Shown: positions 28,806-62,241, numbered from the stretch's first letter. The stretch is DNA of 64,000 nucleotides from an uncultured Desulfobacteraceae bacterium (GCA_964580575.1 CAZOLJ010000006.1:825-64824), one strand, 5' to 3'. The notes: a model not told the origin generated them from the letters alone. Translations and numbers: made by a program.

Positions 28806-29456
28806 ATGGCACAGGAACTTATCTACACGGAGACAAGAAATCATTGGGACGATGACATGACTTGGATTCCGGGGGAATCAGGGAAAGGCGTGGACACTCA
28901 TGCTTTCACTTTACCCGCAGGGATGAAATTCGCGAGATATTCAATCGATGTCGATGTGGCATCCCTGGCAAGCTACTACAAAGTCGAGTCTGCACCCAAG
29001 GCTGGAGCAACCGGCAAACAGCAGATCCAAGTGAGGTGGTGGTACAATCCCTTTGGCAAGATTCGGTATACCCTGAATGTTTACGGGGGAGAGCCTGAAA
29101 CCGTCACGGTTTGGTACGGAGAGAACAACTGGGTCGGCAAAACCCTGAACACCCTGGAACAGGATCTGAATCTCAGAATGCCGGGGCGGGGCAGCGTCGC
29201 CAGGAAGCTGTTCAGCCGTATGATGCGCATGGCAGACAAAGACCTTCAGCGCAACTTTATCACCCACCCAAAGTCCGGCTCGGTCGCTGGGACGCAGGAC
29301 ACGGCTCTTGGGCTGATCGCAACTGTCAAGTATGGCGCCATGGGAGGCCTGATTTTATATGCTCTCGACAAGGGCTATGAGGTCATGGGGCAGTTCGATG
29401 CCGGGGGCGCGCTTCCTTTTGATGATGAACTGGCCATCTCCTTTACAAAGCGCTGA
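28806..29456 (+). CDS. Hypothetical protein (no family recognised)
   Basis: 216-aa ORF from ATG 28806 after RBS AAGGAG. Composition looks like a globular protein. No motif I can name. Confidence 0.5.
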   Translation: MAQELIYTETRNHWDDDMTWIPGESGKGVDTHAFTLPAGMKFARYSIDVDVASLASYYKVESAPKAGATGKQQIQVRWWYNPFGKIRYTLNVYGGEPETVTVWYGENNWVGKTLNTLEQDLNLRMPGRGSVARKLFSRMMRMADKDLQRNFITHPKSGSVAGTQDTALGLIATVKYGAMGGLILYALDKGYEVMGQFDAGGALPFDDELAISFTKR

Positions 29457-30010: not shown

Positions 30011-30718
30011 CTATTCCTCCGCACCGAGCTTTATGAGGTTTGAAACCTTCTCTTCCAGGGTTTTGACCTCTTCGAAAATAATTTTGAGGTATTCTCTATT
30101 GGAATCAGTGTCGCTCGACTTTCCATGGAGCCTCCGGGCGACACCGCCTACGACGGTGAGTGAATTCCTGAGTTCATGGGCTATCCTGTTTGACATTTCG
30201 CCCACTGTGGCCAACCTTTCGGCCTCTATGAGGCACTTCGTCTTTTCTTCGAGCTCTGCCGTTCGTTCCCTGACCTTTTGTTCCAGACCTTGATTCAAGC
30301 TGTGGACCTCCGCGTAGAGTTTCGAAATCCTTATGGCAATACCGATCTGGTTGGAGATGACGTAAATCACGTCGTTGAAGCGCTCATGGAAGTAATTCTT
30401 CTTCTTGGAAGACGTCACCAGGACTCCGATCGTTTCTCCTTCAAGCTTGATAGGCGTGACTGCAAAAGACTTGATATTCTCGCAGACAATGCGATTCGTT
30501 GAGATGGGTTTGTCTATTTGGTCCGCATCATTGATGATGACAATTCTGCCCGTAAGAAAACAGTCTCCAGAATAGCTGTCAATGGTGGGTTCTCTCGTCG
30601 TTTGTTCTATGAACGCCTGGCTCAGCCCCTTGTGACTCTTGATTCTGAGCTTCCCGTCCGGGTCCAGCAGGCGAATGGAACAGGCGTCCAGTTTGAACTC
30701 CTCCACCAACAGATGCAC
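30011..30718 (-). CDS. GAF + HisKA (dimerisation/phosphoacceptor) protein lacking an ATPase domain
   Basis: GAF-like core, then 'ERLATVGEMSNRIAHELRNSL' H-box, then stop with no HATPase_c. The frame is open upstream to about 30895 with no in-frame ATG (GTG at 30718 is the first canonical start). Confidence 0.55.
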   Translation of the reverse strand: MHLLVEEFKLDACSIRLLDPDGKLRIKSHKGLSQAFIEQTTREPTIDSYSGDCFLTGRIVIINDADQIDKPISTNRIVCENIKSFAVTPIKLEGETIGVLVTSSKKKNYFHERFNDVIYVISNQIGIAIRISKLYAEVHSLNQGLEQKVRERTAELEEKTKCLIEAERLATVGEMSNRIAHELRNSLTVVGGVARRLHGKSSDTDSNREYLKIIFEEVKTLEEKVSNLIKLGAEE

Positions 30719-33795: not shown

Positions 33796-34743
33796 CTATT
33801 GCAGAGGGCCCGCTTCGCTGTCGGCGACGTAGTAGAGCAGAGTGTTCCGCACTTGTGCCCGGATTCGTTTCTCCCTCAGGAGTTTCCCGAGATACTTGGA
33901 GACCTCGTTGGGGTGCATGTTGAAGGTCTCGGCAATCTCATGGTCGGTACACGGGCGCCGCTGCAACATGGAATAAATCTCTTCCTGCGCGGCGTACATC
34001 TCCACTCTCTGTTTCGCTTTAAAGTCTGCAATCACCTCCGCTTGAGGGGCAAAAAGAGAGCACAGGGACTCCAGGCGTTCTCTGGAAACGGGCACTGCAA
34101 AATCCTCGGAGGGAGGTCGTACCGCGGTATTGAGATGAATGCGGTGCGGCCCGATCTCTTTGGCCAAAGCCGCGATTTTCGCGACATCCGGAGGGAGTGA
34201 GTTCATGCCCGCAACCAGAAAAACCTCCAACCACAACTGTCCCTTGAAGTGGGCTCGAAATGCTTTCTGGCCTTCAACCACCTGATGGAAGGAAAGCTCC
34301 GGGTGGGGCCGGTTCATCCACCCAAAAGAGGCCTGGTCCCAAGCGCTCAGGGAAGTCTTGACGATATGGGCGTGAGAGGCGGCCTCTTGAACCTCCGGTA
34401 GATGAAGCAGGGTGCCATTGGTCAAAAGCACTGCCGGAATAGAGCTGTGCGATCGGACGAACCGGAGCACTTCCCCGAAACCCGAATGAAGGGTCGGCTC
34501 TCCTGAACCTGAAAGAGTGATGTAATCGGCCTTGCCGTTCTCTTTGATCCACGCCTCAAGCTCGGCGATCACTGCCTCCACAGGCACGTATTCCTCGCGC
34601 GCCAGGGTTTTATGGGTGGTCTGTCCAAGCTGGCAGAACACGCAGTCCAGGGTGCATGTCTTGCGAGGTGTAAGATCGACTCCCAGGGATCGTCCAAAAC
34701 GACGGGACGCCACAGGTCCGAAGAGATAACGGAACGTTTGCAT
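33796..34743 (-). CDS. Radical SAM protein with C-terminal winged-helix-like domain
   Basis: 'GPVASRRFGRSLGVDL.P.K.CTLDCVFCQ' (CX3CX2C) and 'SGSGEPTL'. The C-terminal ~70 aa is HTH-like. Confidence 0.75.
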   Translation of the reverse strand: MQTFRYLFGPVASRRFGRSLGVDLTPRKTCTLDCVFCQLGQTTHKTLAREEYVPVEAVIAELEAWIKENGKADYITLSGSGEPTLHSGFGEVLRFVRSHSSIPAVLLTNGTLLHLPEVQEAASHAHIVKTSLSAWDQASFGWMNRPHPELSFHQVVEGQKAFRAHFKGQLWLEVFLVAGMNSLPPDVAKIAALAKEIGPHRIHLNTAVRPPSEDFAVPVSRERLESLCSLFAPQAEVIADFKAKQRVEMYAAQEEIYSMLQRRPCTDHEIAETFNMHPNEVSKYLGKLLREKRIRAQVRNTLLYYVADSEAGPLQ

Positions 34744-34757
34744 AGGGGGTAAGTCCT

Positions 34758-35201
34758 CTACTCTTTCTTCCTGCGTTGTTTCCTCATGTAGTCATCAAGG
34801 GCTGCCTGAAGCGTATCCGCAGCGAGGAAGGCGCAGTGCCGATCTTCCTCAGGAAGGCCGCCCAGGGTTTCGAGAATGGTTTCGCCCGAAATCTCAGCCA
34901 CTTCATCCGGGGTTTTTCCGAGCGCAAGCTCAGCTGCAAAAGAACCGCAGACCATACTGGACCCGCAGCCGTCTGTCCGGAAGGTGGCTTCTTTGACTCT
35001 GTCCTGTTCAAACCTCAAGAAAATCTCCATCCTGTCCCCGCAAGAACCGGCGACATGGCCGTATCCATCGGGATTGTCCATGGCCCCCATGTACTGAGAT
35101 CTGAGCCATCTCTCAAAGGCCAGCTGCCCGTAGGCCTCCCTGGTCTCCTCATGAATCTGGTGCTGTATTTCCTGGATGAAATCGTCGATCGACTCGGTCA
35201 T
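34758..35201 (-). CDS. NifU/IscU N-terminal-domain-like Fe-S scaffold protein
   Basis: 'GSCGDRMEIFL....V.EA.F.TDGCGSS...........GKT..E.......L...GGLPE...HCA.LA..TL.AAL.DY'. Paralogue of 6492-6920. Confidence 0.7.
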   Translation of the reverse strand: MTESIDDFIQEIQHQIHEETREAYGQLAFERWLRSQYMGAMDNPDGYGHVAGSCGDRMEIFLRFEQDRVKEATFRTDGCGSSMVCGSFAAELALGKTPDEVAEISGETILETLGGLPEEDRHCAFLAADTLQAALDDYMRKQRRKKE

Positions 35202-35551
35202 GCCTTCTCCCCTCAATTCCCGTTTTCACACCGCTGATATCGGTCCCCAGGAGGATAGTGAAGCAAGGGGTATGCCATGGTGATGATTTAGTCCCATCGG
35301 AGATCCCAAAGGCTTGAGTTATCGGGTAGTTGGTATGGAAACCCCATCAGCGAATTTGTTCTCAAGCCGCTCGGGATCTATGCAGGTTTGCAATGGTTTG
35401 CGGCAGTCCTGCAAAACTGAAAACCGGCGGAAAGAAGCCCCTGTCCGCCAAGGTGAATCCAAGGCAGATCAGAGATGGCAGGACACTGATAATGCAGAAG
35501 TCCGAGCCCTCTCCAGGCCGAACACATTTTGTACAGAAAATCTTTAAGAAC

Positions 35552-50209: not shown

Positions 50210-51886
50210 CTAGGCCGCCAAGCGAATGGCGTTCTCGGTCACCTTTCTGATCTCATCGGGAGTAAAGGGCTTTGGTAGATAGTCGACCGCCCCCAGCCGG
50301 GCGCTTTCCTTGGCTGTTTCGATACTGGCATAGCCGGTGATGATGATGACGAGCGTCTCCGGGCTTTTCTCACGGATGGCATGAAGGAGTTCCAGTCCCT
50401 GCACACCGGGGATTTTGAGATCGAGCAGGATGAGTTTGTAGGCCTTCTCCTCGATTTTCTGCAGTGCTTCTTCTTTGGTCATCGCCTGATCGACGGAGAA
50501 TCCTTTCTTTGACAAGATCTTGCGGATATTGTTGTTCACCGCCGCTTCGTCATCAATCACCAGAACGTCTTGCTCGTTTGCTTTCCTGGGCAATTCATGG
50601 ACCACGGCCTTGCGGGGGGCTTCTTTCTTCAGGAGGCCGGAAACCCTTTGCTTCAACTCCTCGTAGGGCATGAGAGAGACCCCCTCATGTTCGAGGTATT
50701 TCACGAAATCCGGTCCGGTCAGCGCAACCACCTCTTCGTGGCTGAAGGGCATGTCCGGGCCCACCCATTTCCTCACATCCGGAACTTCTCCTTTTGTCCC
50801 CGCCGTCTTCTTCCCTTTCATTTGGGGGCACAGGTTGCTCTTGAGGCCTGCCTTGCAGGTGTTCCCGATCTTTTTGTAGATGTCACAGATTTTCACGCCG
50901 ACTTTGCAATAGTGCTCCAGAGTCTCAGGAGACGGGGCACTAAGGGACGGCATGTCCGAAGGGCCGAGGGTGTCTGCATAGGATTCGCCTGCTTGCATCG
51001 CCACTTCGTCTCTTGCAAAAGGAATATCCACGTCAATGACCTGTTTCCTTTTAGCCATCACGGCCGTCATCTTCTTCTTGAGTTCTTCATAGGGCACAAA
51101 GGCAATGCCGTCGCTCTGAAGATTCATGAGGTACTCAGGTCCGGTGATTGAAGCGATCTCCTCGTAGCTGAAAGGCTGATCAATGCCGACAAGCTTCTTG
51201 GGGTCTAAAGCCTTTTCACTCTTCCCTTCTTTTTTCGCCTTCGTCCCTTTTTTGGCCTGTGGGCACGCCTCGGTCTTGAGACCTGCTTTGCAGGTGTTCC
51301 CAAGCTTCTTGAAAATGTCGCACACCTTTTGCCCTACCTTGCAATAGTACTCCAGGGTCTCGATCGATGGCATCTCCACAACAGGCATATCCGAGGGGCC
51401 CAGCGTATCCGCGTATCCTTCCCCCGCGACCTTTGCCACTTCTTGCCTGTCAAAGGGGATGTCGAGATCAATGACTTTGATCGCCTTTCTCTCCTTTTCA
51501 GAGACCGGCGCCTCGCGCAATTCCCCTGAAAGAGCCTTTTCCACCGTATCCCTTACTTCTTTCGGGGTGAAAGGCTTGGGAATGTAATCCAGAGCACCGA
51601 GCCGGATAGCTTTCATGGCGGTATCGGTAGAGGCATAAGCCGTCATAATGATCACTTTGGTGAGGGGCCACTGCTCTTTCACGAGCTTCAAGAGCTCCAG
51701 CCCGTTCTTTTCAGGCATCACAATGTCGGAGATCAGCAGGGAATAAGAATCCTTGGCCATCTTCTCAAGGGCCTCCTGGGCGCTCAAGGCCTGAGTCACT
51801 TCATAATTCTTTTTTGCCAGGATTTTGTGCACATTCTCACAGATTCCTTTTTCATCGTCCACGACCAGAATCTTCTTTGTCTCCAT
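50210..51886 (-). CDS. Dual-receiver response regulator with a duplicated central four-Cys domain (REC - X - X - REC)
   Basis: N- and C-terminal CheY-like receivers ('ILVVDDE...SDIVMP', 'VLVIDDE...LLDLKIP'). Between them are two ~135-aa repeats, each with 'IDxDIPF...YADTLGPSDMP...ETLE.YCKVG.K.CDI.KK.GNTCKAGLK...CPQ' (C-x6-C-x9-C-x8-C). Confidence 0.8.
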   Translation of the reverse strand: METKKILVVDDEKGICENVHKILAKKNYEVTQALSAQEALEKMAKDSYSLLISDIVMPEKNGLELLKLVKEQWPLTKVIIMTAYASTDTAMKAIRLGALDYIPKPFTPKEVRDTVEKALSGELREAPVSEKERKAIKVIDLDIPFDRQEVAKVAGEGYADTLGPSDMPVVEMPSIETLEYYCKVGQKVCDIFKKLGNTCKAGLKTEACPQAKKGTKAKKEGKSEKALDPKKLVGIDQPFSYEEIASITGPEYLMNLQSDGIAFVPYEELKKKMTAVMAKRKQVIDVDIPFARDEVAMQAGESYADTLGPSDMPSLSAPSPETLEHYCKVGVKICDIYKKIGNTCKAGLKSNLCPQMKGKKTAGTKGEVPDVRKWVGPDMPFSHEEVVALTGPDFVKYLEHEGVSLMPYEELKQRVSGLLKKEAPRKAVVHELPRKANEQDVLVIDDEAAVNNNIRKILSKKGFSVDQAMTKEEALQKIEEKAYKLILLDLKIPGVQGLELLHAIREKSPETLVIIITGYASIETAKESARLGAVDYLPKPFTPDEIRKVTENAIRLAA

Positions 51887-51955
51887 GTCTTCTTCCCCTT
51901 TTATGATCAGAGTTTTAAAACTTTCACCCATGGTAAACAGTCTGCCTTTACACGA

Positions 51956-51971
51956 AGCATATGTCGTGCCA
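51956..51971 (-). promoter_or_regulatory. Candidate sigma-54 promoter upstream of the dual-receiver gene
   Basis: Minus strand reads TGGCAC-GACAT-ATGCT (perfect -24, one mismatch at -12), about 70 nt upstream of the ATG at 51886 and directly downstream of an NtrC-family gene. Confidence 0.55.
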
Positions 51972-52297: not shown

Positions 52298-53716
52298 CTA
52301 TCTGGATGAGGCTGGCCGAGTTGGAAGGGAAATACCGTGCTTCTTCATCAGATTTTGGAAATTCGGCCGCTGCAGTCCCACTTTTTTTGCAGCCCGGGTG
52401 ACATTCCAGTCGTTTTGCATCAGGGCCTGGATAATGAAGTTCCTCTCTACCTCTCTCACGGCATTTTCTCTTATCTCTTTTTTGACTCTTTTGAGAGCTT
52501 CGTTGTTTTCCGGTACTTGGACAACCAGCCCTCCAAGATCGTCCAAGGCAGGTAGTTCCCTGGGGGTGATTTCTTTCCCTTCACAGAGAATCACTGCGCG
52601 CTCAATGACATTCTTGAGCTGCCGCACATTGCCGGGCCAATCGTAAGTCGTCAGTCTGACCGAAGCCTCCTTGGTAAGACCGCTGATGTGCTTGCCGGTC
52701 AGGTCGCTGAACTGCCTCAGAAAGTGATAAGAGATCGGGAGAATGTCGCTTTTCCGGTCCCTGAGGGGTGGAGTAAAAATAGGATACACGAAAATGCGGT
52801 AGTAGAAGTCCTGCCGGAAGGACCCTTCTTTGACCATCTCCATGAGATCTCTGTTGGTCGCCAGGATGAGGCGCACGTCCACTTTTTGGGTCGATGTGGT
52901 GCCTAGGGCAAGGTATTCCCGGGTTTCCAGAAAGCGGAGGAGCATAGCCTGGACCTCCGGACTGATGTTGCTGATTTCGTCCAGAAAGACGGTGCCCCCG
53001 TCCGCCGAATGAAAGATGCCTTCCTTATTCTTGTAAGCCCCCGTGAAGGCGCCTTTGGCATAGCCGAACAGCTCGCTTTCCAGAAGGTTCCCGGACAAGG
53101 TGCCGCAATCAACGGCAAAGAAAACCTTTTCGCTTCGACGGCTGTTCGCATGGATGGCCCGGGCGATCAATTCTTTGCCCGTGCCGCTCTCCCCACAAAT
53201 GAGAACGGTTGAATCCGTGGGAGCCACTTTGGCGATCATCTTGATGACCGCCTGATTCTTCGGGCTTTCCCCGATGAGCCGGTGGGAGATAGTCCTTGAT
53301 TCCCCCTCCTGCAGACTCATTTGCCGATTCTGTGCGCGGATCTCCCAGTCCGAAAGGGCGCGTCGAACAATAGCCCGTAATTCCTCGGGCGTAAACGGTT
53401 TGGGAAGGTAGTCATAGGCCCCTGTTCTCATGACCTCCACGGCGGACGAGACCGTGGCATAGCCGGTAATCACGATCACCATGGAGTCGGGATAGGATTC
53501 TTTTACGCGCCTCAGAACCTCCAGCCCCCCCATGCTGCTCATTTTCAGATCCGTGATGATGACCTCAAAGGGTTTCTGTTCCATCCTCTTCAGCGCATCG
53601 TATCCGTTGAGCACGTAATCGACTTGAAGGCCCTCCTTGGAGAGTATCTTGACACAGCTCTGGCAAATCCCCAGCTCATCATCCACCACAAGGACTCGTC
53701 TGCTCTGATCAGGCAT
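52298..53716 (-). CDS. NtrC-family sigma-54-dependent response regulator (REC + AAA+ + HTH)
   Basis: 'VLVVDDE...ITDLKM', 'GESGTGKE', 'ESELFGYAKGAFTGA', 'GGTVFLDEI' and a C-terminal Fis-type HTH. ATG overlaps the upstream kinase stop (ATGCCTGA). Confidence 0.9.
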   Translation of the reverse strand: MPDQSRRVLVVDDELGICQSCVKILSKEGLQVDYVLNGYDALKRMEQKPFEVIITDLKMSSMGGLEVLRRVKESYPDSMVIVITGYATVSSAVEVMRTGAYDYLPKPFTPEELRAIVRRALSDWEIRAQNRQMSLQEGESRTISHRLIGESPKNQAVIKMIAKVAPTDSTVLICGESGTGKELIARAIHANSRRSEKVFFAVDCGTLSGNLLESELFGYAKGAFTGAYKNKEGIFHSADGGTVFLDEISNISPEVQAMLLRFLETREYLALGTTSTQKVDVRLILATNRDLMEMVKEGSFRQDFYYRIFVYPIFTPPLRDRKSDILPISYHFLRQFSDLTGKHISGLTKEASVRLTTYDWPGNVRQLKNVIERAVILCEGKEITPRELPALDDLGGLVVQVPENNEALKRVKKEIRENAVREVERNFIIQALMQNDWNVTRAAKKVGLQRPNFQNLMKKHGISLPTRPASSR

Positions 53717-55157
53717 TCTGCTCTCCTCTGGGGATGGGGAGATGAATCCTGAACGTCGTTCCTTCACCTACCTTGCTCTCCACGTCTATGGAACCGTCAT
53801 GTTGCTCAATGATTCCGTGCGTAATGGCAAGACCAAGGCCTGTCCCGGTCTCCTTGGATGTGAAGAAGGGATCGAAGATCCTGTCCAAAGCCCGCTCCGG
53901 TATGCCGCCGCCCGTGTCGCTGACCGTGATTTCTACCACCTGTTTTTCGGGAACCAGACGGCTGGCAAAGCGAATCTTTCCTCCAGGATCGGTCGCGTCG
54001 ATGCCGTTGATGGCGAGATTGATGAGGCATTGCTGGATCTGATCCTTGTCGATGTCCACCAAAGGCAGTGGCTCAGAGAGAACGGCCTCAAAAGCGACGT
54101 CCTTGAAAGCGGCTTGCTTTCTGGTGAGGGCCATGGAGTCACGAACAACCTGGTTGATGTCATGACGCGCCTTTGCCGGTTTGCTCTGACGCGCAAAATC
54201 GAGGAGGCTGGTCACGATTTTGCGACACCGCAGAGTCTCATTGGCAATCGTCTCAAGCTCGCGATAGTTGGGATCTTCAATGTCCATTTCCTCCTGAATC
54301 AGCAGGGCCGTGGTGAGAATAGTGGTCAGAGGGTTATTGATCTCATGGGCCACGCCTGCGGCCAATTGGCCCACGGAGGCGAGTTTCTGCTGCTCCACGA
54401 GTTTCTTTTGAAGGAGAATGTCCCTGGTAATGTCCTTTGAAATCTCTATGACACCCTGCACCGCATGGTCGCTGAAGATAGGATAACAGGAAATCGAATA
54501 GTAGCGTGGGTTGTCTTCTTTGTCCCGATGGACGTGAGTGGCTTGTGAGGCTCTGCCGGTGCCGAGGCATTCTATGAGAGGGCAGGGGTGTTCTTTCCCA
54601 TCGCAGGGTTTATTCCGGTCGTGGGAAAGCTCGTAACAGTGCATGCCCAAGGCGGAAGCCCTGTTTAGCCCCATCTTCTTGAGCAATGTGTCATTGATGT
54701 CGAGAATGCCGTAGTCCCTTCCGATGAGCATCACGTCTTCGTGAAAAAAAGCATTGATGACCGCCTCGTACAGAGTCGTCATTCTCGCAAGCTCCTGTCG
54801 GGTCCTGTCCAGGACTCTGTCCCCGGCAACAAGCTCGCCCAAGAGTTCCGCCGCTCCATCGTCAAGAAAAATAACCTGTTTCCCTTTTTCTTGAAGCACC
54901 GTCTTGGATACACCCGTATCGTCGGTCAGGCTGACCACCAGGTCAATGTCCTTTCGCTGGAGTACCTTGTGCAGATCCCGCGTCACGGATACGCTCCGGT
55001 CCCCTGCATGGGTCACGGCCGATGCCTCTTCTCCCGAGTCTACGATCGCGACGATGGCGGGATCAAGTGTCTCGAAAACGCGTTTTTGAAAGCGATCCAG
55101 AAAATCCATGCATTTCTGCCCGCTACCAATCACGACAATCTTCAGCTTCTTCCTCAC
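53709..55157 (-). CDS. Sensor histidine kinase (N-terminal Rossmann-like or unknown domain + PAS + HisKA/HATPase)
   Basis: H-box 'GVAHEINNPL', 'DTGGGI' and 'GTGLGL'. PAS with 'CYEL..(x10)C(x6)CP'. Confidence 0.85.
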   Translation of the reverse strand: MRKKLKIVVIGSGQKCMDFLDRFQKRVFETLDPAIVAIVDSGEEASAVTHAGDRSVSVTRDLHKVLQRKDIDLVVSLTDDTGVSKTVLQEKGKQVIFLDDGAAELLGELVAGDRVLDRTRQELARMTTLYEAVINAFFHEDVMLIGRDYGILDINDTLLKKMGLNRASALGMHCYELSHDRNKPCDGKEHPCPLIECLGTGRASQATHVHRDKEDNPRYYSISCYPIFSDHAVQGVIEISKDITRDILLQKKLVEQQKLASVGQLAAGVAHEINNPLTTILTTALLIQEEMDIEDPNYRELETIANETLRCRKIVTSLLDFARQSKPAKARHDINQVVRDSMALTRKQAAFKDVAFEAVLSEPLPLVDIDKDQIQQCLINLAINGIDATDPGGKIRFASRLVPEKQVVEITVSDTGGGIPERALDRIFDPFFTSKETGTGLGLAITHGIIEQHDGSIDVESKVGEGTTFRIHLPIPRGEQNA

Positions 55158-55364
55158 CCTTTTTGTGGCTCCTTAAAGGTCCCTGTTAAGCGAATACGCA
55201 TCTCCGAGAGCGCGCTGAGAAGCCCCTTTGTACAGGCCCCTCTACAAAATCATGGTAGGCCAGTGAGGATCTAAAATCAAGAAGGAACAGGCTCGGGAGG
55301 TTGGGAAGGCTCCGGATGGTCTCGGGGCCTGGCGAAGGACCACAGAGGCCCTCCGAGGGCGTCC

Positions 55365-56441
55365 TCATCCGGAGATCTGCGAGGTGAACGGCAAAATGAT
55401 TCTGAAAGTGCTTCCTTTGCCGGGGCTGCTGAGGACCTCGATTCTGCCGTCGTGCTCCTTCACGATTTCATGAACTACCATCAGTCCGAGGCCGGTGCCG
55501 TCCGTTCCCTTTGTGGAGAAGAAGTGGGTGAAGATTTTCTCAGAGGTGGCGTGGTCCATCCCAATCCCGTCATCCTCCACCTCGATGACGAAATGACGGC
55601 GGTCATAGAAATCGGCTTTCACAGCGATGGCGTGAGAGTCTTTTCCTTTATCCCTGCGGCACGCTTCCATGGCATTGGAAAGAAGATTGATCAACATCCG
55701 GCGCATGGCGCCGGGATCCATATGAACCACAGGAAGACGAGGGTTCGTGTTCGCTCTCAGTTTGCACTCGATCGACTGAGCTTTTTCGTAAAAGAATGCG
55801 ATGGACTCCATGAGCATTTTATCAAGGGCAATCGCCTCATAGACAGGCTTCCTTTTCTTGGTGGAATACAGGATATTCTGGACCAGGCCGGAAATCTCCT
55901 GGATGTTTTTTTTGACCACAGACCATCCTTTTTTCATCAGTTCCTGATCTTGGTCCTTCAGCGCTTCATCCACCACATAGGCGCCTCCTTGGAGACCCTC
56001 CAAAATGTTCTTGATATCATGGGAAAGGATCGCCACAGACTGACCGAGGAGAGTGAGTCCCTTCTGGGTCTCTTTCACCTTGCTGATGTTGGACGACAGC
56101 TCCAGAACCGCAACGACATTGCCCAGGGCATCCGTAATGGGGGAAGAGTAAATCACCACGTGGACGGGGCCGCTGCCCCCCAGTTGCACGACCTCTTCGC
56201 TGACGTGGGCCTTCTTGTCCTGAAAGGTCTCCCAGACAGGGCAGGAAGAGCATCGGGCGGAACTCCTTAAATAGACTTCATGGCACTTCTTGCCGATCGC
56301 ATCGCCGAAGTCATTTCGGAAGGTCTGGTTGGTTTGCAGGATGGTGAAAGATCGGTCTTGAATGGAGACATAGCAAGGAAGCAGATCGACAATCGCCTTG
56401 TACCCAAGGTCAATGAGGGTGGGATGAGTTTTTTCTTCCAT
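55365..56441 (-). CDS. PAS sensor histidine kinase
   Basis: 'LSHDIKN' H-box, 'DDGIGM' and 'GTGLGL'. PAS with 'CHEVY..(x10)C(x2)CP'. Confidence 0.85.
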   Translation of the reverse strand: MEEKTHPTLIDLGYKAIVDLLPCYVSIQDRSFTILQTNQTFRNDFGDAIGKKCHEVYLRSSARCSSCPVWETFQDKKAHVSEEVVQLGGSGPVHVVIYSSPITDALGNVVAVLELSSNISKVKETQKGLTLLGQSVAILSHDIKNILEGLQGGAYVVDEALKDQDQELMKKGWSVVKKNIQEISGLVQNILYSTKKRKPVYEAIALDKMLMESIAFFYEKAQSIECKLRANTNPRLPVVHMDPGAMRRMLINLLSNAMEACRRDKGKDSHAIAVKADFYDRRHFVIEVEDDGIGMDHATSEKIFTHFFSTKGTDGTGLGLMVVHEIVKEHDGRIEVLSSPGKGSTFRIILPFTSQISG

Positions 56442-56488
56442 GGTCCTGAACTCTCCGGCTGGTGCGAACCCTCAAGGTCCGGTTGGCC

Positions 56489-56881
56489 TTATTTCAGGCA
56501 GTTCCGAACGGCATCCAGGATTTCATCAGGCTCAGGCGGCTTCTCGATGTAAGCTGCAGGTTCAGGGATTTTCTCTCCCTTGTATTCATCCAGCACTTTC
56601 TGGGAATGAAAAAAGGTTTTTTTGGACAGCGCTGACAACATGATCACAGGAATATCCTTCAGTTCAGGGTCGTTCCTTAACTCGCGATAGAGGTTGATCC
56701 CGCTCTCTTTGGGCATCATGATGTCCAGGATAATGAGAGCCGGCCTGCTCTTGCGGGCCACCTCCAGCCCCTGGAAACCGTCCTGAGCCGTGAGAGGCTT
56801 AAAGCCGTTGGTTTCCAGCAGGGTGGTGATAAAGGTTCTCATGTCCAATTCGTCGTCAACTACAAGGACTTTCTTCGCCAT
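56489..56881 (-). CDS. Single-domain response regulator
   Basis: 'VLVVDDE...ILDIMMP...K'. ATG at 56881 after RBS GGAGGG. Confidence 0.85.
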   Translation of the reverse strand: MAKKVLVVDDELDMRTFITTLLETNGFKPLTAQDGFQGLEVARKSRPALIILDIMMPKESGINLYRELRNDPELKDIPVIMLSALSKKTFFHSQKVLDEYKGEKIPEPAAYIEKPPEPDEILDAVRNCLK

Positions 56882-57022
56882 CTGCGTTTCCCTCCATGAA
56901 ATCATGTTGCTTCGCTCGATGATTTCATCATGCGCGACTACGTCGCTTGTTAATTTGGATAAACGCCTGTGCCTTTGTGAAGCGGCGCAGCCGCGTTTCA
57001 TGAAATCGCGTGAGCGATTTTA

Positions 57023-57526
57023 TCAATACATGCTTCCAGGCAGAGTGAATTGTTTTGCCGGATTGCGAATTGCGATGACATGGCAATGGGCGTATTTGGA
57101 TACATTGGCCACCGTGCTTCCGTGAATCATGCGATCCTGTTCCGCCTTGCCTAGGGCCCCCATGACGATCACATCAATGGCGTTTTTCTTCGCATAACGG
57201 ATGATTTCCACATCGGGCGACCCGCTCTTGACGACGAACAAGTAGTTCTTGAAATCCCCGAGCTTCTTCTCGTACTCCTCCTTGAGCGCCTCCCTGGCCC
57301 GCTTCTCCAAGTCTTCGTCATAGAAGGCCTCACCGCCGGGAGACCCTGAAGGAACATGTTCGTCAACCACATTCCTCAGATAGGAATAGGAAGAGTGGGG
57401 GACATGAAAAATGTGGAGCTTTGCACCATGCTTCTTCGCAAGGTCGAAGGCGTGAAGGAAGGCGATGTTGGCGTCCTCTGAAAAATCCGTGCAGAAAAGG
57501 ATGTTCTTATATTCTATCATGATCAA
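57023..57526 (-). CDS. Universal stress protein (UspA family)
   Basis: 'ILFCTDFSE.A..A...A..LA...GA.L...HV' and 'VMGA.G......GS.A..V......CHV..I'. Confidence 0.85.
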   Translation of the reverse strand: MIMIEYKNILFCTDFSEDANIAFLHAFDLAKKHGAKLHIFHVPHSSYSYLRNVVDEHVPSGSPGGEAFYDEDLEKRAREALKEEYEKKLGDFKNYLFVVKSGSPDVEIIRYAKKNAIDVIVMGALGKAEQDRMIHGSTVANVSKYAHCHVIAIRNPAKQFTLPGSMY

Positions 57527-57550
57527 CCCCTCTCAAAAGAAATGATGTTT

Positions 57551-58696
57551 TCATGCGGATGGCTTCTTTTCGGGAAGCCTCACCCTGAAGACCGTGCCGC
57601 TCCCTTTCTCGGACGAGAGATCCATGACCCCTCCGTGCTCGTCAACGATCTTCTTGGCGATCATCAAACCAAGACCCGTGCCCCTCGAGCCCTTTGTGCT
57701 GAAAAAAATCTGAAAAACCTTCTTTCTCGTCTCTTCATCCATGCCGCAGCCATTGTCAATCACCTGATATTCCACGGCCCACCCCTGAGGCTTCGACGTG
57801 CGAAGGGACACCTCGCATGTTCTTGCAGCGCAGGAAATGTCTGTGCATGCATCAATCGCGTTGGTCAACAGATTGAGGAGAACCCGGTGAATCCCTTCGC
57901 GGTCAAACCACACGTGTGGCAAACCCAGAGCTGGAGCAATCTTCAGGGCTAGCCCTAACTCTGTGGCCCGGGGAAGCATCAGATCATAAACCTCCTTGGC
58001 AGGGCCATTAGGATCGCACAGCTCATACTCGGGCTCCCTCTCCTTGGCGTAGTTCAGGAGATCCACCGCCATGCCTTTGATCTTCTGAACGTTTCCCTTG
58101 ATCATTTGCCAGCCTTGGCTCAGATAGGTTCTGTTCTCCAGGTCAATGCCTTTTTCAAGGACGTACATCCCGCCTGTCAGGCCGGCCGTGATATTCTTGA
58201 TGGCGTGGGCCAGCGCTGCCACGGTCTGGCCCACAGCCGCAAGCCTTTCCGCTTCCACAAGCTTCCGGCTCTTCTCCTCAACCAGCTTCTCCAGGTTTTC
58301 CGTGTACTCCCTGAGCGTCTTTTTGTAGGAAATCCTCTCCAGGGCCCTTCGGAGGGCAATGTCGAGCGTTTCATCGTGGATGGGCTTTGTGATGAAATCA
58401 GACGCATCGTACTTGAGACTCTGTATGGCAAGCTCCATTTCGCCGTGGCCCGTGATCATGATCACTTCGGTGTTGGGGCTTTCTTCCTTAACGCGCTTGA
58501 GCAGTTCGATCCCATCCATCCCGGGCATCTTGATGTCGGTGAGGATGACCTCGGGATCCGCTTCATGGAAAACCCGAAGCGCCTCTTCACCGTTTTGAGC
58601 GGTCAGTACCCGGTAGCCTCGGTCGGCCAGAGAGATGCCCAGGACTTTGAGAATGCCCGGTTCGTCATCAACAAGGAGCACTTGTTTTTCCATCAA
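57551..58696 (-). CDS. Hybrid receiver-histidine kinase
   Basis: N-terminal 'VLLVDDEP...LTDIKMPGMDG', then H-box 'LAHAIKN', 'DNGCGM' and 'GTGLGL'. Confidence 0.85.
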   Translation of the reverse strand: MMEKQVLLVDDEPGILKVLGISLADRGYRVLTAQNGEEALRVFHEADPEVILTDIKMPGMDGIELLKRVKEESPNTEVIMITGHGEMELAIQSLKYDASDFITKPIHDETLDIALRRALERISYKKTLREYTENLEKLVEEKSRKLVEAERLAAVGQTVAALAHAIKNITAGLTGGMYVLEKGIDLENRTYLSQGWQMIKGNVQKIKGMAVDLLNYAKEREPEYELCDPNGPAKEVYDLMLPRATELGLALKIAPALGLPHVWFDREGIHRVLLNLLTNAIDACTDISCAARTCEVSLRTSKPQGWAVEYQVIDNGCGMDEETRKKVFQIFFSTKGSRGTGLGLMIAKKIVDEHGGVMDLSSEKGSGTVFRVRLPEKKPSA

Positions 58697-60180
58697 GCCT
58701 CGTTAATCCGGGGAAACCTGATGATAAAGGTCGCCCCTTCCCCTTCGTTGCTTTCCACATGGATGGTGCCGTCATAATCCTGCACAATGCCATAGCTGAT
58801 GGAAAGACCGAGTCCTGTTCCCTTGCCCACCTTTTTGGTCGTGAAGAAAGGTTCGAATATTCTGTGGAGAATGGCTTCAGGAATTCCTGTTCCGGTATCG
58901 CTCACTTCAATGGTGACCATCGCATCTTCGGCCTTGGTTCTCAAGGTGATGCGTTTTGCTTCTTCTTTGTGGTCGCCTTGCTCCCATTTCTTCTCGATCG
59001 CATCTCGGGCGTTGATCAGAAGGTTAACGAAAACCTGCTCCAGCCGATTAGGATCGGCCAGAATCGGGGGAAGATCCTCACAAAAACCCTCCACCACCTC
59101 GATTTCTCGCAACTTCAATTGCTGCTTGAAAAAGTCAACCGCCCGTCTGAGGACATCGTTGACCTGAACCTTTTCTCTTGCCACGTCTGATTTTCGGCCG
59201 AAGTCTCTCATGTGGCCGATGATTTTCGAGGCCCTGTCCACATGGGTGTCAATCTCTTCGGCCATGGTTCCGAGAATGCCTGCCTTGATCTGCTCCCCGC
59301 CGCCGGCCTTCCTTCGCAAGAAACTGCTCGCTGTCTTGATGACGGAAAGAGGCTGATTGAGTTCGTGGGCGATGCCTGTCGCCATTTCCCCAAGAGTGGT
59401 CATTTTGCCGGCCTGGATCAACTGCTGCTCGGCCATCAAGCGCACCGTGATGTCACTGGTGGTGACAAGAAAGACCTTCCAGCCATTGAATTCAGAGGAA
59501 GAAATGTGAATGCTCACATAGATGACCTTCCCGTCCTTGCGCACCTGTCTCGCCCGGTCGATGATGTTTGTGGATTTGAGACTGACCTCATAGCTCTTCC
59601 GATCATTGCCCTCAAATAGATCAAGGAAGGAGGTCATATAAATCTCGTCTTTGGAGAACCCATAGACAGCGGCGACGCTTTCATTACAGTCGAGAATCTT
59701 GAGGTTCTGCGCGTTCAAAACAAAAACCGGATTGGGAATCGTGTTGAAGATGATGCGGTATTTTTCTTCCGACTTCCTGGCCTCTTTTTCCAGCAATCTC
59801 AGATGGGTCAAGTCCAAACTCATTTCCATGACCGCGGTGACTTCCCCTTTTGAATTCTTGATGGGTGAGGTCTTCACCAGCCAGTAGGTCTCGGTGCCGT
59901 CCTTGGTCACGGCCTGTTCTTCGCTCACATGGGGTCGTCCGTCTTCAAAGGTCTTGAGGACAGGGCAGTCAGGGCATTTTTCAGAACGGCCTTTGTAAGC
60001 CTTGAAGCAGAAATCTCCCGGTTCCGGAGAGAACATCTTTTCGAACTCCCGGTTGTATCGCAGGAGCTTCAGATCCCGATCCTGGACAGTAATGTAGCAG
60101 GGAGACTCCTCAAAGAGCGTCTGGTATTCGTTCTGGTGGCGATTGGATGGTTCTTGTTTAGCCTTGATCAAAGGGTCCAT
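58693..60180 (-). CDS. PAS-PAS sensor histidine kinase
   Basis: H-box '[10 protein letters not shown]', 'DTGTGI' and 'GTGLGL'. The first PAS has 'CFKAY..(x10)C(x2)CP'. Confidence 0.85.
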
Positions 60181-60245: not shown

Positions 60246-61529
60246 CTACTCCTCCTCTTCTTCCTCCTTGGGAATCATGTGTTCCGGGATCTCCATGTGC
60301 TCGGCGATCACTTCCTTGAAGTGGACGGCCTTGATGTCGAGCTTGTGCTCCTTGGCCAGGTCCCGGATCTGGTCGATGCAGTTGTGGCAGGGCACCAGAA
60401 CGATCTTGGCGCCTGTTTCGCGGATCTGCTCGGCCTTGATCTTTCCCGAAGCCAGGCGGTACTTTTTCATTTCACCGCCCATGGGCATGGCCCCGCCGCC
60501 GCCCCCGCAACAGTAGTTGTAGTTGCCCTGGTACTTCATGGGGCGGAAATCCTCCGACACCATTTCAGCCAGATGCCGGTTTTTCTCTGCGAGTCCTCCG
60601 CTCCGGATGACATTGCAGGGGTCCTGGACCGTGGTGGGCACTTTGATCTTCTCTTTGAGCTTGATCCGGCCGTCCCTGAGGTAATCGTGGAAGAGTTCCA
60701 CCGAGTGAATCACTTCCTGCTTTGGCTCGTATCCCAACCAGGTGGGCGCTTCGTACCGAAGCGCACGATACGCGTGTCCTCACTCGGTTATGGCGACTTG
60801 TTTCACCTCCAGTTCCTCGGCGCGCTTGAAGGTGTTTTCAACGATCATGCGAGCGGTAGGCGCATCATTGATGAACATGGCCAGGTTCGTACCGTCCCAT
60901 CCTTTCTCGCTCGGGACAGTCCAGTCCTCCCCGGCGACCGTAAAGATTTTGGCCACCTCCATGATGTCCTGAGGGTAGAACTTGGGCTCCCTGGCATTCA
61001 CCGTGTACATGATTTTGGCGCCCTTCTTGTCGATGGGGATCTTGACGCCCACGACTTCCGCCGCGGCCTCCTCCTCGCACCACTGGATGGTCTCGACCCA
61101 GTCTTCCTTGGACACGGCCATCTGATTGCCGGTGAGCTTGTAGTTTTCGACGGCTTTCTTGAGACCTTCAGGCGCGATTCCCAAGGAGGTCAGCAGGCCC
61201 CGGAGGGTGGAGATGAGAAAGCCGATGTCAATGCCGAAGGGACAGTAGAGGGTGCAGCGCCTGCACATGTTGCACTCATAGTAAATGGTTTTGTAGATCT
61301 CCTGGAGGTACTCCTTGTCCACCCGGCCTTTTTTCTTGAGCAGGTCTCTCAAGAATCTCACTTTGTAGGCGGGGATCATTTTGGGATCTTTCCCGCTCGC
61401 CAGATAGAAGTGGCAGGTGTCGGCGCACATGCTGCAGTGGGTGCAGGTTTCAATCCACGTCTTCAAACGGGCACCCAATCGGGGTTTGAGGAAATCCATG
61501 ATCGCTTTCGGGTTCACGTCTTCAGTCAT
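60246..61529 (-). CDS. DsrK/HdrD-like Fe-S (CCG-domain) protein with selenocysteine (UGA at 60780-60782 recoded)
   Basis: Track ORFs 60780-61529 and 60246-60737 are in frame. Read-through gives '...KQVAITE-U-GHAYRALRYEAPTWLGYEPK...'. 'CTHCSMCADTC' and 'CNMCRRCTLYCP' are N-terminal; 'NYCCGGGGG' and 'PCHNC' are C-terminal. Perfect 8-bp hairpin GCGCUUCG-GUA-CGAAGCGC lies 15 nt after the UGA (plus 60746-60764). Poly-E tail, as in 38291-39604. Confidence 0.8.
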
Positions 61530-61575
61530 AGGGCAACTCCTTTAGCCAGGAAAATCTCTTTCAAAACCCACCAGG

Positions 61576-62241
61576 CTATATTGAGTATCCTCTTCTTCCG
61601 AATTCGATGCCGCTGGCTGCCCGGGAGAAGAAGAAAAGCACGGAGTGGGAGAGTCTTGTAAAAGGGATCAGGATGAGCATGAGCTCTGCAGAGAGAACAT
61701 GGAAGAGCCTCATGTTGTCACCGAGAAACTTGATGCTGTCCAAGGTGCCGTGAGTGAGGAAATAACCGGTCAGAAAGGGGAGAACCGTCACCACGATGAG
61801 GAGGTAATCGCCAGCCGTGGTGAGGAGGCGGAGATCAGGCAACAGTGCCCTTCTCAGGATGAAAAAAATAGCGATCGCAAGAAGGAGCAGCGTCATCCAG
61901 TCCGCCCATTTGTCGGGGATAGAGGACCAGGACCACCCGAAGCGTGACTCCTCCCACAGCGAGACGTGGCCTGCCAGCCAGATGGGCACCACAATGAGGC
62001 AGATGTGAAAGAGGTAGACACAGATAATGAAAACAGGGTTTTTTTTCACCGTCACATTGAGGGGCAGCAGCCACCGGCCCAAGGTGGCGAGAATGTATTT
62101 CACGCTGAAATAATTGTAGAGGGGCTTATCCTTTGTCCTGGCGACAAAGATGAACTGGGCCATGCGGATCAGCGTTCCGATGATGAAAACAAGAAAAGCG
62201 ATCCACAGTAGGGGTCCTTCGGCAAATGAGCTAAAGTCCAT
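61576..62241 (-). CDS. DsrM/HmeC/NarI-like membrane cytochrome b-type subunit
   Basis: Five or six predicted TM helices with conserved His residues ('FHICLI', 'GHVSLW', 'FHVLS', 'LSH'). Immediately upstream of the DsrK-like gene. Confidence 0.7.
   Translation of the reverse strand: MDFSSFAEGPLLWIAFLVFIIGTLIRMAQFIFVARTKDKPLYNYFSVKYILATLGRWLLPLNVTVKKNPVFIICVYLFHICLIVVPIWLAGHVSLWEESRFGWSWSSIPDKWADWMTLLLLAIAIFFILRRALLPDLRLLTTAGDYLLIVVTVLPFLTGYFLTHGTLDSIKFLGDNMRLFHVLSAELMLILIPFTRLSHSVLFFFSRAASGIEFGRRGYSI

Follow-up and report, generated by a model that had tools for sequence, protein, structure and literature searches.

What do the sensor proteins of this locus in an uncultured, sulfate-reducer-like genome share, and what might they sense? 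The window (the whole stretch of 64,000 nt that was analysed) encodes PAS-domain kinases and sigma-54 activators, seven of which had been assigned a cysteine triad of the form C-x7-10-C-x2-6-C by a sequence-only reading. Six-frame translation of the window recovered all seven Cys motifs where that reading had placed them (genes A-G, Table 1). Each motif is enclosed by a significant Pfam PAS_4/PAS_9 match, and the three Cys of A-G occupy the same three alignment columns, except in the hmmsearch alignment, where the middle Cys of D sits one column off. All seven spacings fit the proposed range, and 6 of 7 domains have Pro right after the third Cys, as had been described. The additional 'G..C.E' signature survived in part: the Gly ahead of the motif is invariant, whereas 'C.E' occurs in five domains and is absent from D and G. 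The window contains ten PAS matches, and the three outside this set have no triad Cys. A binomial estimate gives ~3e-5 for 7 of 10 at a base rate of 12%, which is itself inflated by a triad-biased sample; this value is only indicative, because paralogues are not independent.

Table 1. Sensor genes, signalling array, redox genes and putative promoter elements in the window
Feature	Position (nt)	Strand	Description	Basis	Triad spacing	Motif (nt)	I-beta Glu (codon)
NifU-like gene	6438-6920		neighbour of gene A				
Gene A	6922-8289	-	OrpR-type sigma-54 activator: PAS, AAA+, HTH_8	Pfam PAS_9/PAS_4, Sigma54_activat, AAA_lid_14, HTH_8	C-x8-C-x3-C	8086-8127	Glu116 (7942-7944)
Element TGGCATAGCCTGTGC	8732-8746	+	weak sigma-54-like element, divergent A/metF intergenic region	2 mismatches			
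MTHFR gene	8859-9731		113 nt downstream of TGGCATAGCCTGTGC				
HdrA-like gene	9804-12851		follows MTHFR gene				
MvhD gene	12848-13291		follows HdrA-like gene				
Gene B	16475-18025	+	histidine kinase: triad PAS, second Cys-free PAS, HisKA, HATPase; motif CHEVFYNSKEPCSAYLCP	Pfam	C-x10-C-x4-C	16637-16690	Glu118 (16826-16828)
Gene C	23149-24417	-	histidine kinase, triad PAS with OrpR spacing	Pfam	C-x8-C-x3-C	24028-24072	Glu177 (23887-23889)
Gene D	26956-27891	+	truncated sigma-54 activator, triad PAS	Pfam	C-x7-C-x4-CP	27127-27171	Glu122 (27319-27321)
Dual-receiver gene	50210-51931		gene behind TGGCACGACATATGC				
Element TGGCACGACATATGC	51957-51971	-	sigma-54 -24/-12-like element, 26 nt upstream of dual-receiver gene	1 mismatch			
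Gene K	52298-53767	-	NtrC-type response regulator: receiver, sigma-54 AAA+, HTH	sequence			
Gene E	53709-55157	-	histidine kinase: N-terminal Rossmann-like domain, triad PAS, HisKA, HATPase; motif CYELSHDRNKPCDGKEHPCP	Pfam	C-x10-C-x6-C	54579-54638	Glu238 (54444-54446)
Gene F	55365-56441	-	histidine kinase, triad PAS	Pfam	C-x10-C-x2-CP	56238-56285	Glu114 (56100-56102)
Receiver	56489-57001	-	stand-alone receiver, array	PF00072			
Usp gene	57023-57526	-	universal stress protein, array	Pfam PF00582 on identical metagenome contig			
Gene H	57551-58696	-	receiver + HATPase hybrid kinase, array				
Gene G	58693-60180	-	histidine kinase: triad PAS, second Cys-free PAS, HisKA, HATPase	Pfam	C-x10-C-x2-CP	59962-60009	Glu119 (59824-59826)
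DsrMK/HdrDE-like unit	60246-62241	-	directly upstream of G, same strand				
CCG-domain protein	60246-60737	-	DsrMK/HdrDE-like unit				
Fer4 protein	60780-61529	-	DsrMK/HdrDE-like unit				
221-aa protein	61576-62241	-	DsrMK/HdrDE-like unit; membrane-bound by look of sequence	no Pfam match			

Two gene models need comment. For gene C, whose ORF runs into the upstream gene, the real start is probably downstream of 24417. Gene D, which has two additional Cys shortly downstream of its motif, ends within the AAA+ domain (the match breaks off at position 132 of the 168-position profile), and the rest of this domain was not found in the window. In the signalling array at 52-60 kb, the sequence-only reading had spoken of four triad sites but listed three, and E, F and G are the only ones there; its 'four kinases, one hybrid' come down to three kinases with PAS and a single receiver-kinase hybrid, H, that lacks PAS.

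We surveyed 1364 PAS domains, a triad-biased sample, and found that the triad is an all-or-none trait: 161 domains carry the full set of three Cys and 1119 lack it entirely, leaving 49 with a single Cys and 35 with two. When the motif columns are masked, the nearest neighbour is a triad domain for 146 of the 161 triad domains and for 12 of the 1203 others. The Cys triad marks a coherent PAS subfamily that holds all seven domains. Loop-length variants recur widely, and under motif masking the domains group with one another. Loss of the Cys in orthologues, which the sequence-only reading had named as evidence against itself, is not what we observed: 118 of 120 orthologues of kinase E (48-96% identity) retain the three Cys, the Glu described below and two His, and A-type domains keep the triad in 115 of 120 orthologues. 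The triad is likewise retained in gene G orthologues (P0001, P0011, P0012, P0016, P0081), in a gene F orthologue (P0271) in which the Cys and Glu stay and the intervening residues change, in gene B orthologues with three Cys, Glu and a variable loop (P0004, P0005, P0018, P0119), and in L065, which has the spacing type of D. Triad PAS domains are spread over many bacterial phyla, with at least one protein labelled archaeal, and reach up to five tandem copies in one protein.

What is new here is a Glu on strand I-beta that co-varies with the triad. It is present in 88% of triad domains versus 1% of other PAS domains and in all seven domains of the window; it is missing from 12% of triad domains, with Val or Leu in its place in three B-like domains (L010, L012, L026). 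These patterns bear on another reading of the cysteines, in which they act as a thiol/disulfide or sulfenate switch without any metal. Kinases such as ArcB and RegB are known to use switches of this Cys-based kind, and AccS is another example. However, two Cys suffice for a disulfide, yet three are kept or lost together here, and the co-varying buried Glu and the Pro after Cys 3 indicate a defined ligand geometry. Of the redox inputs suggested by the sequence-only reading, plain thiol/disulfide chemistry is the least likely: the three Cys show an all-or-none pattern, and a Glu that faces the pocket co-varies with them. We regard such a switch as highly improbable.

The same reading was aware of no characterised protein with this exact spacing, but one exists. 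OrpR (DVU2106) of Desulfovibrio vulgaris Hildenborough, a sigma-54 activator reported in 2021 to sense redox potential via an iron-sulfur cluster, carries Cys52, Cys61 and Cys65 (C52-x8-C61-x3-C65) plus Asp/Glu54 in its PAS domain, the last proposed by its authors as a possible fourth ligand (PMC8359166). The protein, made in D. vulgaris or E. coli, is straw-brown, with bands at 410/320 nm and EPR signals of [4Fe-4S]1+ and [3Fe-4S]1+; purified anaerobically, it holds a cluster in the [4Fe-4S]2+ state, which turns into [3Fe-4S]1+ plus Fe3+ (PMC8359166). Both the triple Cys-to-Ser mutant and the PAS deletion are constitutive, and the triad is needed for redox sensing (PMC8359166). A full OrpR-type activator would bind such a redox-sensitive [4Fe-4S] cluster and have a PAS domain that, once oxidised, represses AAA+ activity. 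Gene A has the same architecture, an N-terminal PAS, a sigma-54 AAA+ domain and a Fis-type HTH; its CWEVFRASICEKRC, matched to OrpR by published residue positions, places C52, E54, C61 and C65 when counted from Met4, where the orthologues begin (the Cys are Cys55/64/68 of the ORF). Kinase C shares the OrpR spacing, and its PAS domain is 38% identical to that of A; like B, E, F and G it is a kinase, whereas OrpR is an activator. OrpR residue 54 is not conserved family-wide but the I-beta Glu is, which makes the latter, judged from the alignments, the better candidate for a family-wide fourth cluster ligand.

We put a probability of roughly 0.6 on the reading that the seven domains belong to one OrpR-type PAS subfamily and would hold an iron-sulfur cluster, most likely [4Fe-4S]2+, in the PAS cofactor cavity. 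The seven-sensor pattern is real and is mostly an expansion of a known sensor kind, and the metal or Fe-S part of the shared input that had been suggested is supported by homology to OrpR. Cluster binding and redox switching have been shown for OrpR alone, by others; for the seven domains we infer the cofactor and its ligation by the Glu. Several observations count against this reading. Five domains (B, D, E, F, G) have loops of a length other than that in OrpR; the I-beta Glu is not universal; in the window, gene A lacks flanking orp genes of the MinD or NifX type; and OrpR preparations have 0.3-0.5 cluster per chain, with the PAS placement derived from mutant phenotype and a model, not a structure (PMC8359166).

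The main rival is a Zn(II) site on the three Cys and the Glu, with no Fe-S cluster in vivo, in which the metal would either brace the E-alpha/F-alpha loop or belong to a sensor of metals or oxidants, with zinc let go when the thiols are oxidised. Three Cys with a carboxylate are a classical zinc ligand set. In MopR/DmpR-type sigma-54 activators, the sensor domain binds its metal with three Cys and one Glu, a zinc site in the phenol-sensing MopR, though the fold is V4R/XylR_N, not PAS, and the zinc is structural, not a signal. The C-x2-C-P of F, G and most family members (116 of 161 triad domains) resembles zinc-knuckle motifs, E-type domains have two conserved His near the Cys, and the cluster occupancy of OrpR is substoichiometric. 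Conversely, the colour, absorption bands and EPR signals of OrpR belong to a cluster, evidence that also weighs against a thiol switch, and the site fills the cofactor cavity, not a surface loop. In addition, the named carriers of the family are mostly groups that we take to be anaerobes, which fits an oxygen-labile cofactor and would not be explained by a purely structural zinc. On this balance we judge the zinc site unlikely. A c-type haem PAS of the Geobacter GSU0582/0935 kind (CXXCH) was rejected, as C-x2-C is followed here by Pro, not His (CSSCPV, CPDCPV).

Gene neighbourhoods were compared across the 80 best related loci, in 78 of which the AAA+ domain directly follows the PAS domain, with 51-96% identity to the AAA+ of gene A; gene A is a member of a PAS-AAA+ activator family that is very widespread. 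At least one orp-like neighbour family (NifX-like, MinD+Fer4 ATPases, DUF5320, NifU) is present at 55 of the 80 loci and at least two at 36; the closest relative of gene A (L003) has MinD+Fer4, NifX-like and NifU neighbours. Gene A itself differs from the orp-flanked OrpR in its neighbours, a NifU-like gene, a peroxiredoxin gene and the divergent MetF/HdrA/MvhD cluster, and neither a MinD+Fer4 gene nor a single-domain NifX gene was found in the window. The OrpR palindrome GGGCGYRTTTTGCGCCC had 0 matches in the window at up to 3 mismatches, a weak test because a single distant species served to define this site. The sequence-only reading was right about redox modules nearby, since MetF/HdrA/MvhD, NuoF/HdrA-like proteins and the DsrMK-like unit are all present, and near the sensors the window has many genes for oxidative stress and Fe-S (catalase, cytochrome c peroxidase, peroxiredoxin, NifU-like, thioredoxin, FeoB). 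Co-occurrence with Hdr/Dsr genes did not hold as a family trait: an HdrA-like neighbour occurs at just 3 of the 80 loci, where orp-like genes are the commonest neighbours.

If the OrpR-type Fe-S reading is correct, low redox potential would leave the cluster intact, and oxidants or raised potential would remove its unique iron or destroy it, as in OrpR. This change would free strand I-beta, which runs straight into the output-domain linker, and thereby switch autophosphorylation in B, C, E, F and G, or AAA+ activity in A and formerly in D. How the signal travels and how the array is wired is likewise our inference: gene K is probably the common output of kinases E, F and G and of hybrid H. The AAA+ domain of K is 41% identical to that of A, and its NCBIfam matches are AtoC/NtrC-like, every one under cut-off. 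By position and orientation, element TGGCACGACATATGC is a candidate target promoter through which K would drive the dual-receiver gene; the count of sigma-54-like matches across the window is not above chance.

A third assignment comes from NreB, whose PAS domain is a [4Fe-4S] oxygen sensor in Staphylococcus carnosus and a three-Cys [2Fe-2S] sulfide sensor in Bacillus licheniformis (PMC13478379, PDB 9WEX). In the latter, exactly three conserved Cys and a labile SH ligand hold the [2Fe-2S] cluster, and sulfide activates the kinase (PMC13478379). At least some paralogues might similarly bind [2Fe-2S] through three Cys, leaving the fourth position open or exchangeable, and sense sulfide or persulfide, an attractive signal for a sulfate reducer, rather than redox potential. 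Like the triad sensors, NreB is a cytoplasmic PAS governing a histidine kinase, with its Fe-S cluster in a cavity and three-Cys coordination possible; by our own estimate from the offset to the B-beta end, its first and last Cys (C63, C78) lie roughly at the positions of Cys 1 and Cys 3. OrpR switching coincided with H2S being sparged from the medium (PMC8359166), and the DsrMK-like unit adjoins G. However, the NreB spacing is C-x2-C-x11-C(-x2-C) with a HisKA_3 kinase (PMC13478379), whereas the kinases here are HisKA (PF00512) with other spacings. Around the NreB cluster, Asp, Glu and His are absent out to 8.7 A (PMC13478379), unlike the triad family with its co-varying Glu. The OrpR spectra fit [4Fe-4S]; no specific sequence relationship between NreB and triad PAS domains was detectable in the searches run, and NreB was not among PDB sequence matches to the triad profile, although the copy searched may omit this entry. 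NreB-type identity was rejected on spacing and on HisKA instead of HisKA_3, and a [2Fe-2S] site in some paralogues appears quite unlikely.

By Foldseek ranking, the closest solved folds are LOV, NifL and DosP PAS domains, and the AF2 model of the gene A PAS domain has a pLDDT of 92.4. Cys 1, on helix E-alpha, shares its column with the photoactive LOV cysteine, AsLOV2 Cys450 ('GRNCRFLQ' versus 'GRQCWEVFRA'), and the I-beta Glu falls in the column of AsLOV2 G511; in LOV structures, both positions line the flavin pocket. Cys 1, Cys 2 in the E-alpha/F-alpha loop and Cys 3 at the F-alpha N-cap would anchor the cluster, and the I-beta Glu, predicted to face the same cavity, probably supplies a fourth, weaker ligand. 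A LOV identity was rejected: the match is limited to the Cys column, Phe stands in the Gln513 column in A with variation among the seven, and the flavin residues and GXNCRFLQ motif are not kept. It is conceivable, though we lean against it, that PAS domains with three Cys plus Glu are a large unrecognised sensor class in which [4Fe-4S] sits on the Cys and the I-beta Glu, release of the Glu on oxidation is the mechanical signal, and paralogues (E, F, G, B, C, A) are tuned to different potentials or oxidants and converge on sigma-54 regulators; loop-length and second-shell variants within one genome would then be a tuned sensor set. Compared with LOV, the triad PAS has two extra Cys and the Glu, whose column precedes that of the LOV signalling Gln by two residues, on the same face; the proposed Glu release would be analogous to the LOV Gln lever.

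Six-frame translation of the window recovered all seven peptides quoted in the sequence-only reading, in seven open reading frames (A to G; see the table), and that reading is correct as to the Cys spacing, the Gly before the motif and the Pro after it. A significant Pfam PAS_4 or PAS_9 match encloses each of the seven motifs, and in a MAFFT alignment the three Cys (Cys 1, Cys 2 and Cys 3; the triad) fall in common columns in all seven domains, with the middle Cys of D off by one column. By profile scan of the six-frame translation, the triad is present in seven of the ten PAS domains of the window; in the alignment, no Cys occupies the triad columns in the second PAS domains of kinases B and G, or in the PAS domain of a hybrid kinase at 18022-19497. 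Three small points of the earlier reading had to be corrected: the signalling array at 52-60 kb, credited with four triad sites, contains only three, and its kinases, counted as four plus one hybrid, are three PAS kinases and one receiver-kinase hybrid without a PAS domain (H). The third point concerns the activator D, which is truncated within the AAA+ domain, the rest of which was not found elsewhere in the window.

Triad PAS genes and candidate sigma-54-like elements, in window positions
Feature	Position	Strand	Basis or context
A, sigma-54 activator	6922-8289	-	ORF with quoted peptide, six-frame translation
B, kinase	16475-18025	+	ORF with quoted peptide, six-frame translation
C, kinase	23149-24417	-	ORF with quoted peptide, six-frame translation
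D, sigma-54 activator	26956-27891	+	ORF with quoted peptide, six-frame translation
E, kinase	53709-55157	-	ORF with quoted peptide, six-frame translation
F, kinase	55365-56441	-	ORF with quoted peptide, six-frame translation
G, kinase	58693-60180	-	ORF with quoted peptide, six-frame translation
Sigma-54-like element TGGCATGAGGGTTGC	5610-5624		before peroxiredoxin gene; candidate
Sigma-54-like element, weaker	8732-8746		before MetF cluster; candidate
Sigma-54-like element	26682-26696		before thioredoxin gene divergent from D; candidate
Sigma-54-like element TGGCATACCCCTTGC	35263-35277		just upstream of second NifU-like gene; candidate
Sigma-54-like element TGGCACGACATATGC, one mismatch	26 nt before gene 50210-51931		next gene after K (NtrC-type regulator); candidate

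Using a profile of the seven domains, we examined the best 120 database matches, 115 of which contain G..C-x7-11-C-x2-7-C. With full-length E as the query, we gathered 120 full-length orthologues of this kinase (48-96% identical), and 118 of them keep all three Cys. In the orthologues of B, F and G, the Cys are retained and the intervening residues vary. Thus, the lack of conservation across orthologues, which the earlier reading had named as an outcome that would speak against it, was not borne out. A broader sample comprised 1364 PAS domains from the best 150 library-wide profile matches; these were ranked by summed score, consist for the most part of giant multi-PAS proteins and do not represent an orthologue list. 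None of the triad Cys was present in 1119 of these domains, one in 49, two in 35 and all three in 161, a distribution that shows the triad to be gained or lost as a unit. When the motif region was masked, the nearest neighbor was a triad domain of another protein for 146 of the 161 triad domains, compared to a triad domain for 12 of the 1203 non-triad domains. Judged by sequence, the triad domains are a real PAS subfamily and not scattered cysteines. In some multi-PAS proteins of the library (P0122, P0138, P0148, P0155 and others), the triad PAS domain is repeated in tandem, with three to five copies per protein and five in a row in P0138; P0155, with three, is labelled as a protein of a Promethearchaeota (Asgard) archaeon.

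The C-x10-C-x2-C spacing of kinases F and G is found in 116 of the 161 triad domains, followed by x8/x4 (13), x10/x6, as in E (11), x10/x4, as in B (6), and x8/x3 (6), the spacing of the Desulfovibrio vulgaris activator OrpR; the x7/x4 motif of D was seen again in a related locus, L065. From this comparison, it follows that one domain occurs in the window in at least five variants that differ in loop length. A literature search suggests that none of the kinase-linked variants has been studied. The triad proteins of the window passed no NCBIfam model, and a Foldseek search against the PDB together with two PDB sequence searches returned generic PAS, LOV, DosP and NifL matches and no solved structure of the triad family; the Foldseek library has a cut-off of April 2026, and the NreB structure 9WEX, published in May 2026, is not among the matches. 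PrdR, the best NCBIfam match for A, scores far under the cut-off and was rejected.

According to the earlier reading, no characterised example with this exact spacing was known; a full-text literature search found one in OrpR, a sigma-54 activator of D. vulgaris Hildenborough (Fievet et al. 2021, PMC8359166). In the N-terminal PAS domain of OrpR, C52, C61 and C65 are fully conserved, and Asp or Glu is conserved at position 54. The anaerobically purified protein is straw-brown and contains 0.3-0.5 [4Fe-4S]2+ cluster per chain, which is converted by mild oxidants to [3Fe-4S]1+ plus Fe3+ and destroyed by air; deletion of the PAS domain, or replacement of the three Cys by Ser, makes the target operons constitutive, and the authors' model places the three thiols 5-8 A apart (PMC8359166). 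With OrpR as the precedent, we judge the redox-cofactor reading of the Cys-triad PAS to be sound. Gene A (motif CWEVFRASICEKRC), when numbered from Met4, the start in its orthologues, has C52, E54, C61 and C65, i.e., the same numbering as OrpR, and both proteins have the PAS, AAA+, HTH architecture. Kinase C shares the C-x8-C-x3-C spacing with OrpR, and its PAS domain is 38% identical to that of A.

The OrpR family was thought by the same authors to be restricted to Deltaproteobacteria and tied to the orp genes (PMC8359166). Scanning one genome for each GTDB species with a pattern from A-type sequences only, we found at least 587 loci with close relatives of the A PAS domain. The best 80 of these, 56-89% identical to the A PAS over about 125 residues, are labelled as Desulfobacterota, Planctomycetota, Zixibacteria, Acidobacteria, Gemmatimonadota, Firmicutes sulfate reducers, NC10, Hydrogenedentes, Eisenbacteria and others, and in 78 of them a sigma-54 AAA+ domain with 51-96% identity to the one in A comes directly after the PAS. 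Neighbor clustering in the best 80 loci identified five recurrent ORF families downstream of the activator, which by Pfam are (i, ii) two NifX-like groups (Nitro_FeMo-Co), (iii) a MinD/CbiA ATPase with a ferredoxin insert, (iv) DUF5320 and (v) NifU_N; at least one family is present in 55 and at least two in 36 of these loci, the commonest neighbors of OrpR-type activators being NifX-like proteins. The MinD-type ATPases and NifX-like proteins match the orp genes of D. vulgaris. Because the AAA+ architecture and orp-like neighbors recur in the best 80 loci, the A-type family is identified with the OrpR family which, as these labelled loci indicate, is much broader than Deltaproteobacteria. Gene A has no MinD-type or NifX-type neighbor in the window; its convergent neighbors are a NifU-like and a peroxiredoxin gene, and on its divergent side lies a MetF/HdrA-like/MvhD/MetF cluster. 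No D. vulgaris OrpR box was found in the window. The linkage of A to Hdr genes does not extend to the family: A-type activators are linked to Hdr in only 3 of the best 80 loci, and a conserved linkage to MetF/Hdr was rejected on this count.

Comparing all profile columns between triad and non-triad PAS domains, we found that (i) Cys 1 is followed by an aromatic residue (Tyr in 77% of triad vs 5% of non-triad domains); (ii) Cys 3 is followed by Pro (66% vs 6%); and (iii) a Glu on strand I-beta, here called the I-beta Glu, is located four residues ahead of the 'DIT' Asp in 88% of triad vs 1% of non-triad domains, the column containing Gly, Ala or Ser in ordinary PAS domains. This Glu is present in all seven window domains, in 118 of 120 E orthologues and in every aligned A-type sequence; the position equivalent to Glu54 of OrpR, by comparison, is acidic (Glu or Asp) in only 46% of triad domains and basic (Arg or Lys) in 39%. 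It should be noted that Val or Leu replaces the I-beta Glu in B-like triad domains (C-x10-C-x4/5-CP) of three related loci (L010 2551-5448, L012 2394-5474 and L026 2590-5331), so that the residue is not obligatory in every branch. When AsLOV2 is aligned to the family profile, Cys450 falls in the Cys 1 column and G511 in the I-beta Glu column; in LOV structures, these two positions line the flavin pocket from opposite sides. In the confident AlphaFold model of the A PAS (pLDDT 92.4), a short helix carries Cys 1, the loop after it Cys 2, the start of the following helix Cys 3, and the last strand the Glu. We regard the I-beta Glu as a testable candidate for the fourth ligand. The A-beta strand Cys ('PCY') of F and G was also considered for this role and rejected, the residue being Ser in the first domain of library protein P0273.

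We infer that the PAS cavity would hold a cluster on the three Cys, with the I-beta Glu as a fourth, weaker ligand. The unique iron of a [4Fe-4S] cluster is easily lost if one ligand is not a Cys, which fits the ready [3Fe-4S] conversion in OrpR. Since strand I-beta continues into the linker that joins the output domain, the signal could plausibly be transmitted by release of the Glu, in a manner similar to the I-beta Gln of LOV domains. The main alternative, although an improbable one, is that the same residues form a Cys3-Glu zinc site. A somewhat smaller chance is given to an NreB-like [2Fe-2S] cluster with an exchangeable ligand, which would serve sulfide sensing in some of the paralogues: the 2026 NreB structure demonstrates that a PAS domain can indeed coordinate a cluster through three Cys (PMC13478379), but the NreB spacing differs from that of the triad, and NreB is without a nearby carboxylate. 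A metal-free thiol switch appears very unlikely. The preferred reading is that of a cluster held by three Cys and, putatively, the I-beta Glu. AccS (PMC6456745), considered as a three-Cys kinase precedent, is unrelated, its Cys being located in the autokinase domain.

The array lies on one strand in the order DsrMK-like unit, G, H, Usp, stand-alone receiver, F, E, K. Upstream of G, the DsrK/HdrD-like protein is split into two genes (window 60246-61529, minus strand), one for the Fer4 portion (249 aa) and one for the CCG portion (about 155-163 aa), and the split is the same on the identical public contigs. At least at gene G and its flanks, the window is identical to the metagenome contigs JGI 3300020048 Ga0207193_1000534 (69 kb) and ENA ERZ27262927 k141_351800 (123 kb); among named relatives, Desulfatiglandales MAGs are the closest. 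The N-terminal ~120 residues of E (window 54800-55157, minus strand) resemble a Rossmann fold (KIVVIGSG...), and two E orthologues have a precomputed GFO_IDH_MocA match (PF01408); kinase E may combine a nucleotide-binding domain with the Cys-PAS. The minus-strand gene 50210-51931 encodes 573 aa with one receiver domain at either end and, between these, two copies of a ~150-residue module with four Cys each (YYCKVGQKVCDIFKKLGNTCKAGLKTEACPQ, HYCKVGVKICDIYKKIGNTCKAGLKSNLCPQ); Pfam detected only the receivers, and the product is possibly a further metal-binding signalling protein.

Sigma-54-like matches are reported only if located just upstream of a gene and on its strand. The window contains 59 consensus matches, compared to 60.7 expected by chance, and the listed elements are therefore candidates only. 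The peroxiredoxin gene (region 5610-6383, plus strand) has an ATG at 5670 with a good ribosome-binding site, an in-frame TGA (5916-5918) in the place of the peroxidatic Cys (canonical FTFVCPTE), and a stem-loop ~13 nt downstream; it probably encodes a selenocysteine peroxiredoxin. The second NifU-like gene (34758-35216, region 33796-35277, minus strand), with a radical-SAM gene downstream, is 64-68% identical to NifU-like neighbors of OrpR-type activators in other genomes. Directly upstream of C is a CDF cation-efflux transporter with a C-terminal NifX-like Nitro_FeMo-Co fusion (24257-25699, minus strand). The segment 25719-30718 is a cluster of seemingly decayed genes that includes D, ending in AAA+, a pyridine-nucleotide disulfide oxidoreductase split into small ORFs (26039-26311 and 25719-26003), a GAF-HisKA kinase without an ATPase domain (30011-30718), and ORFs 27881-28264 and 28725-29456, which have no Pfam match; the decay could result from pseudogenisation, insertion or an assembly problem. 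Between D and the thioredoxin gene (26286-26657, minus strand), the intergenic region 26658-26955 contains a 15-nt inverted repeat (26825-26863, 93% complementary) ~130 nt upstream of the sigma-54-like element. This layout is typical of an enhancer; therefore, a Cys-PAS activator may once have driven the thioredoxin operon.

These results suggest that, in this organism, several Fe-S sensors in parallel control redox-module and oxidative-stress genes. The putative Fe-S PAS domains named in a large PAS survey of 2023 number just nine and are all NreB-type, and OrpR is missing from it (PMC10468136); thus, the triad class seems to be absent from current functional maps. Because the kind is known already through OrpR, the seven domains add members to it, several of which differ in loop length and are coupled to kinases. 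Three results deserve to be retained: how broad the family is, how many paralogues a single 64-kb stretch contains, and the co-varying Glu, which offers a concrete and cheap mutagenesis target for the question of the fourth ligand in OrpR. If Fe-S binding is true, OrpR would be no isolated, orp-linked oddity of Deltaproteobacteria; it would stand, as the first member to be studied, for a very common type of cytoplasmic redox sensor in anaerobes, a type connected to histidine kinases, sigma-54 activators and giant multi-PAS proteins.
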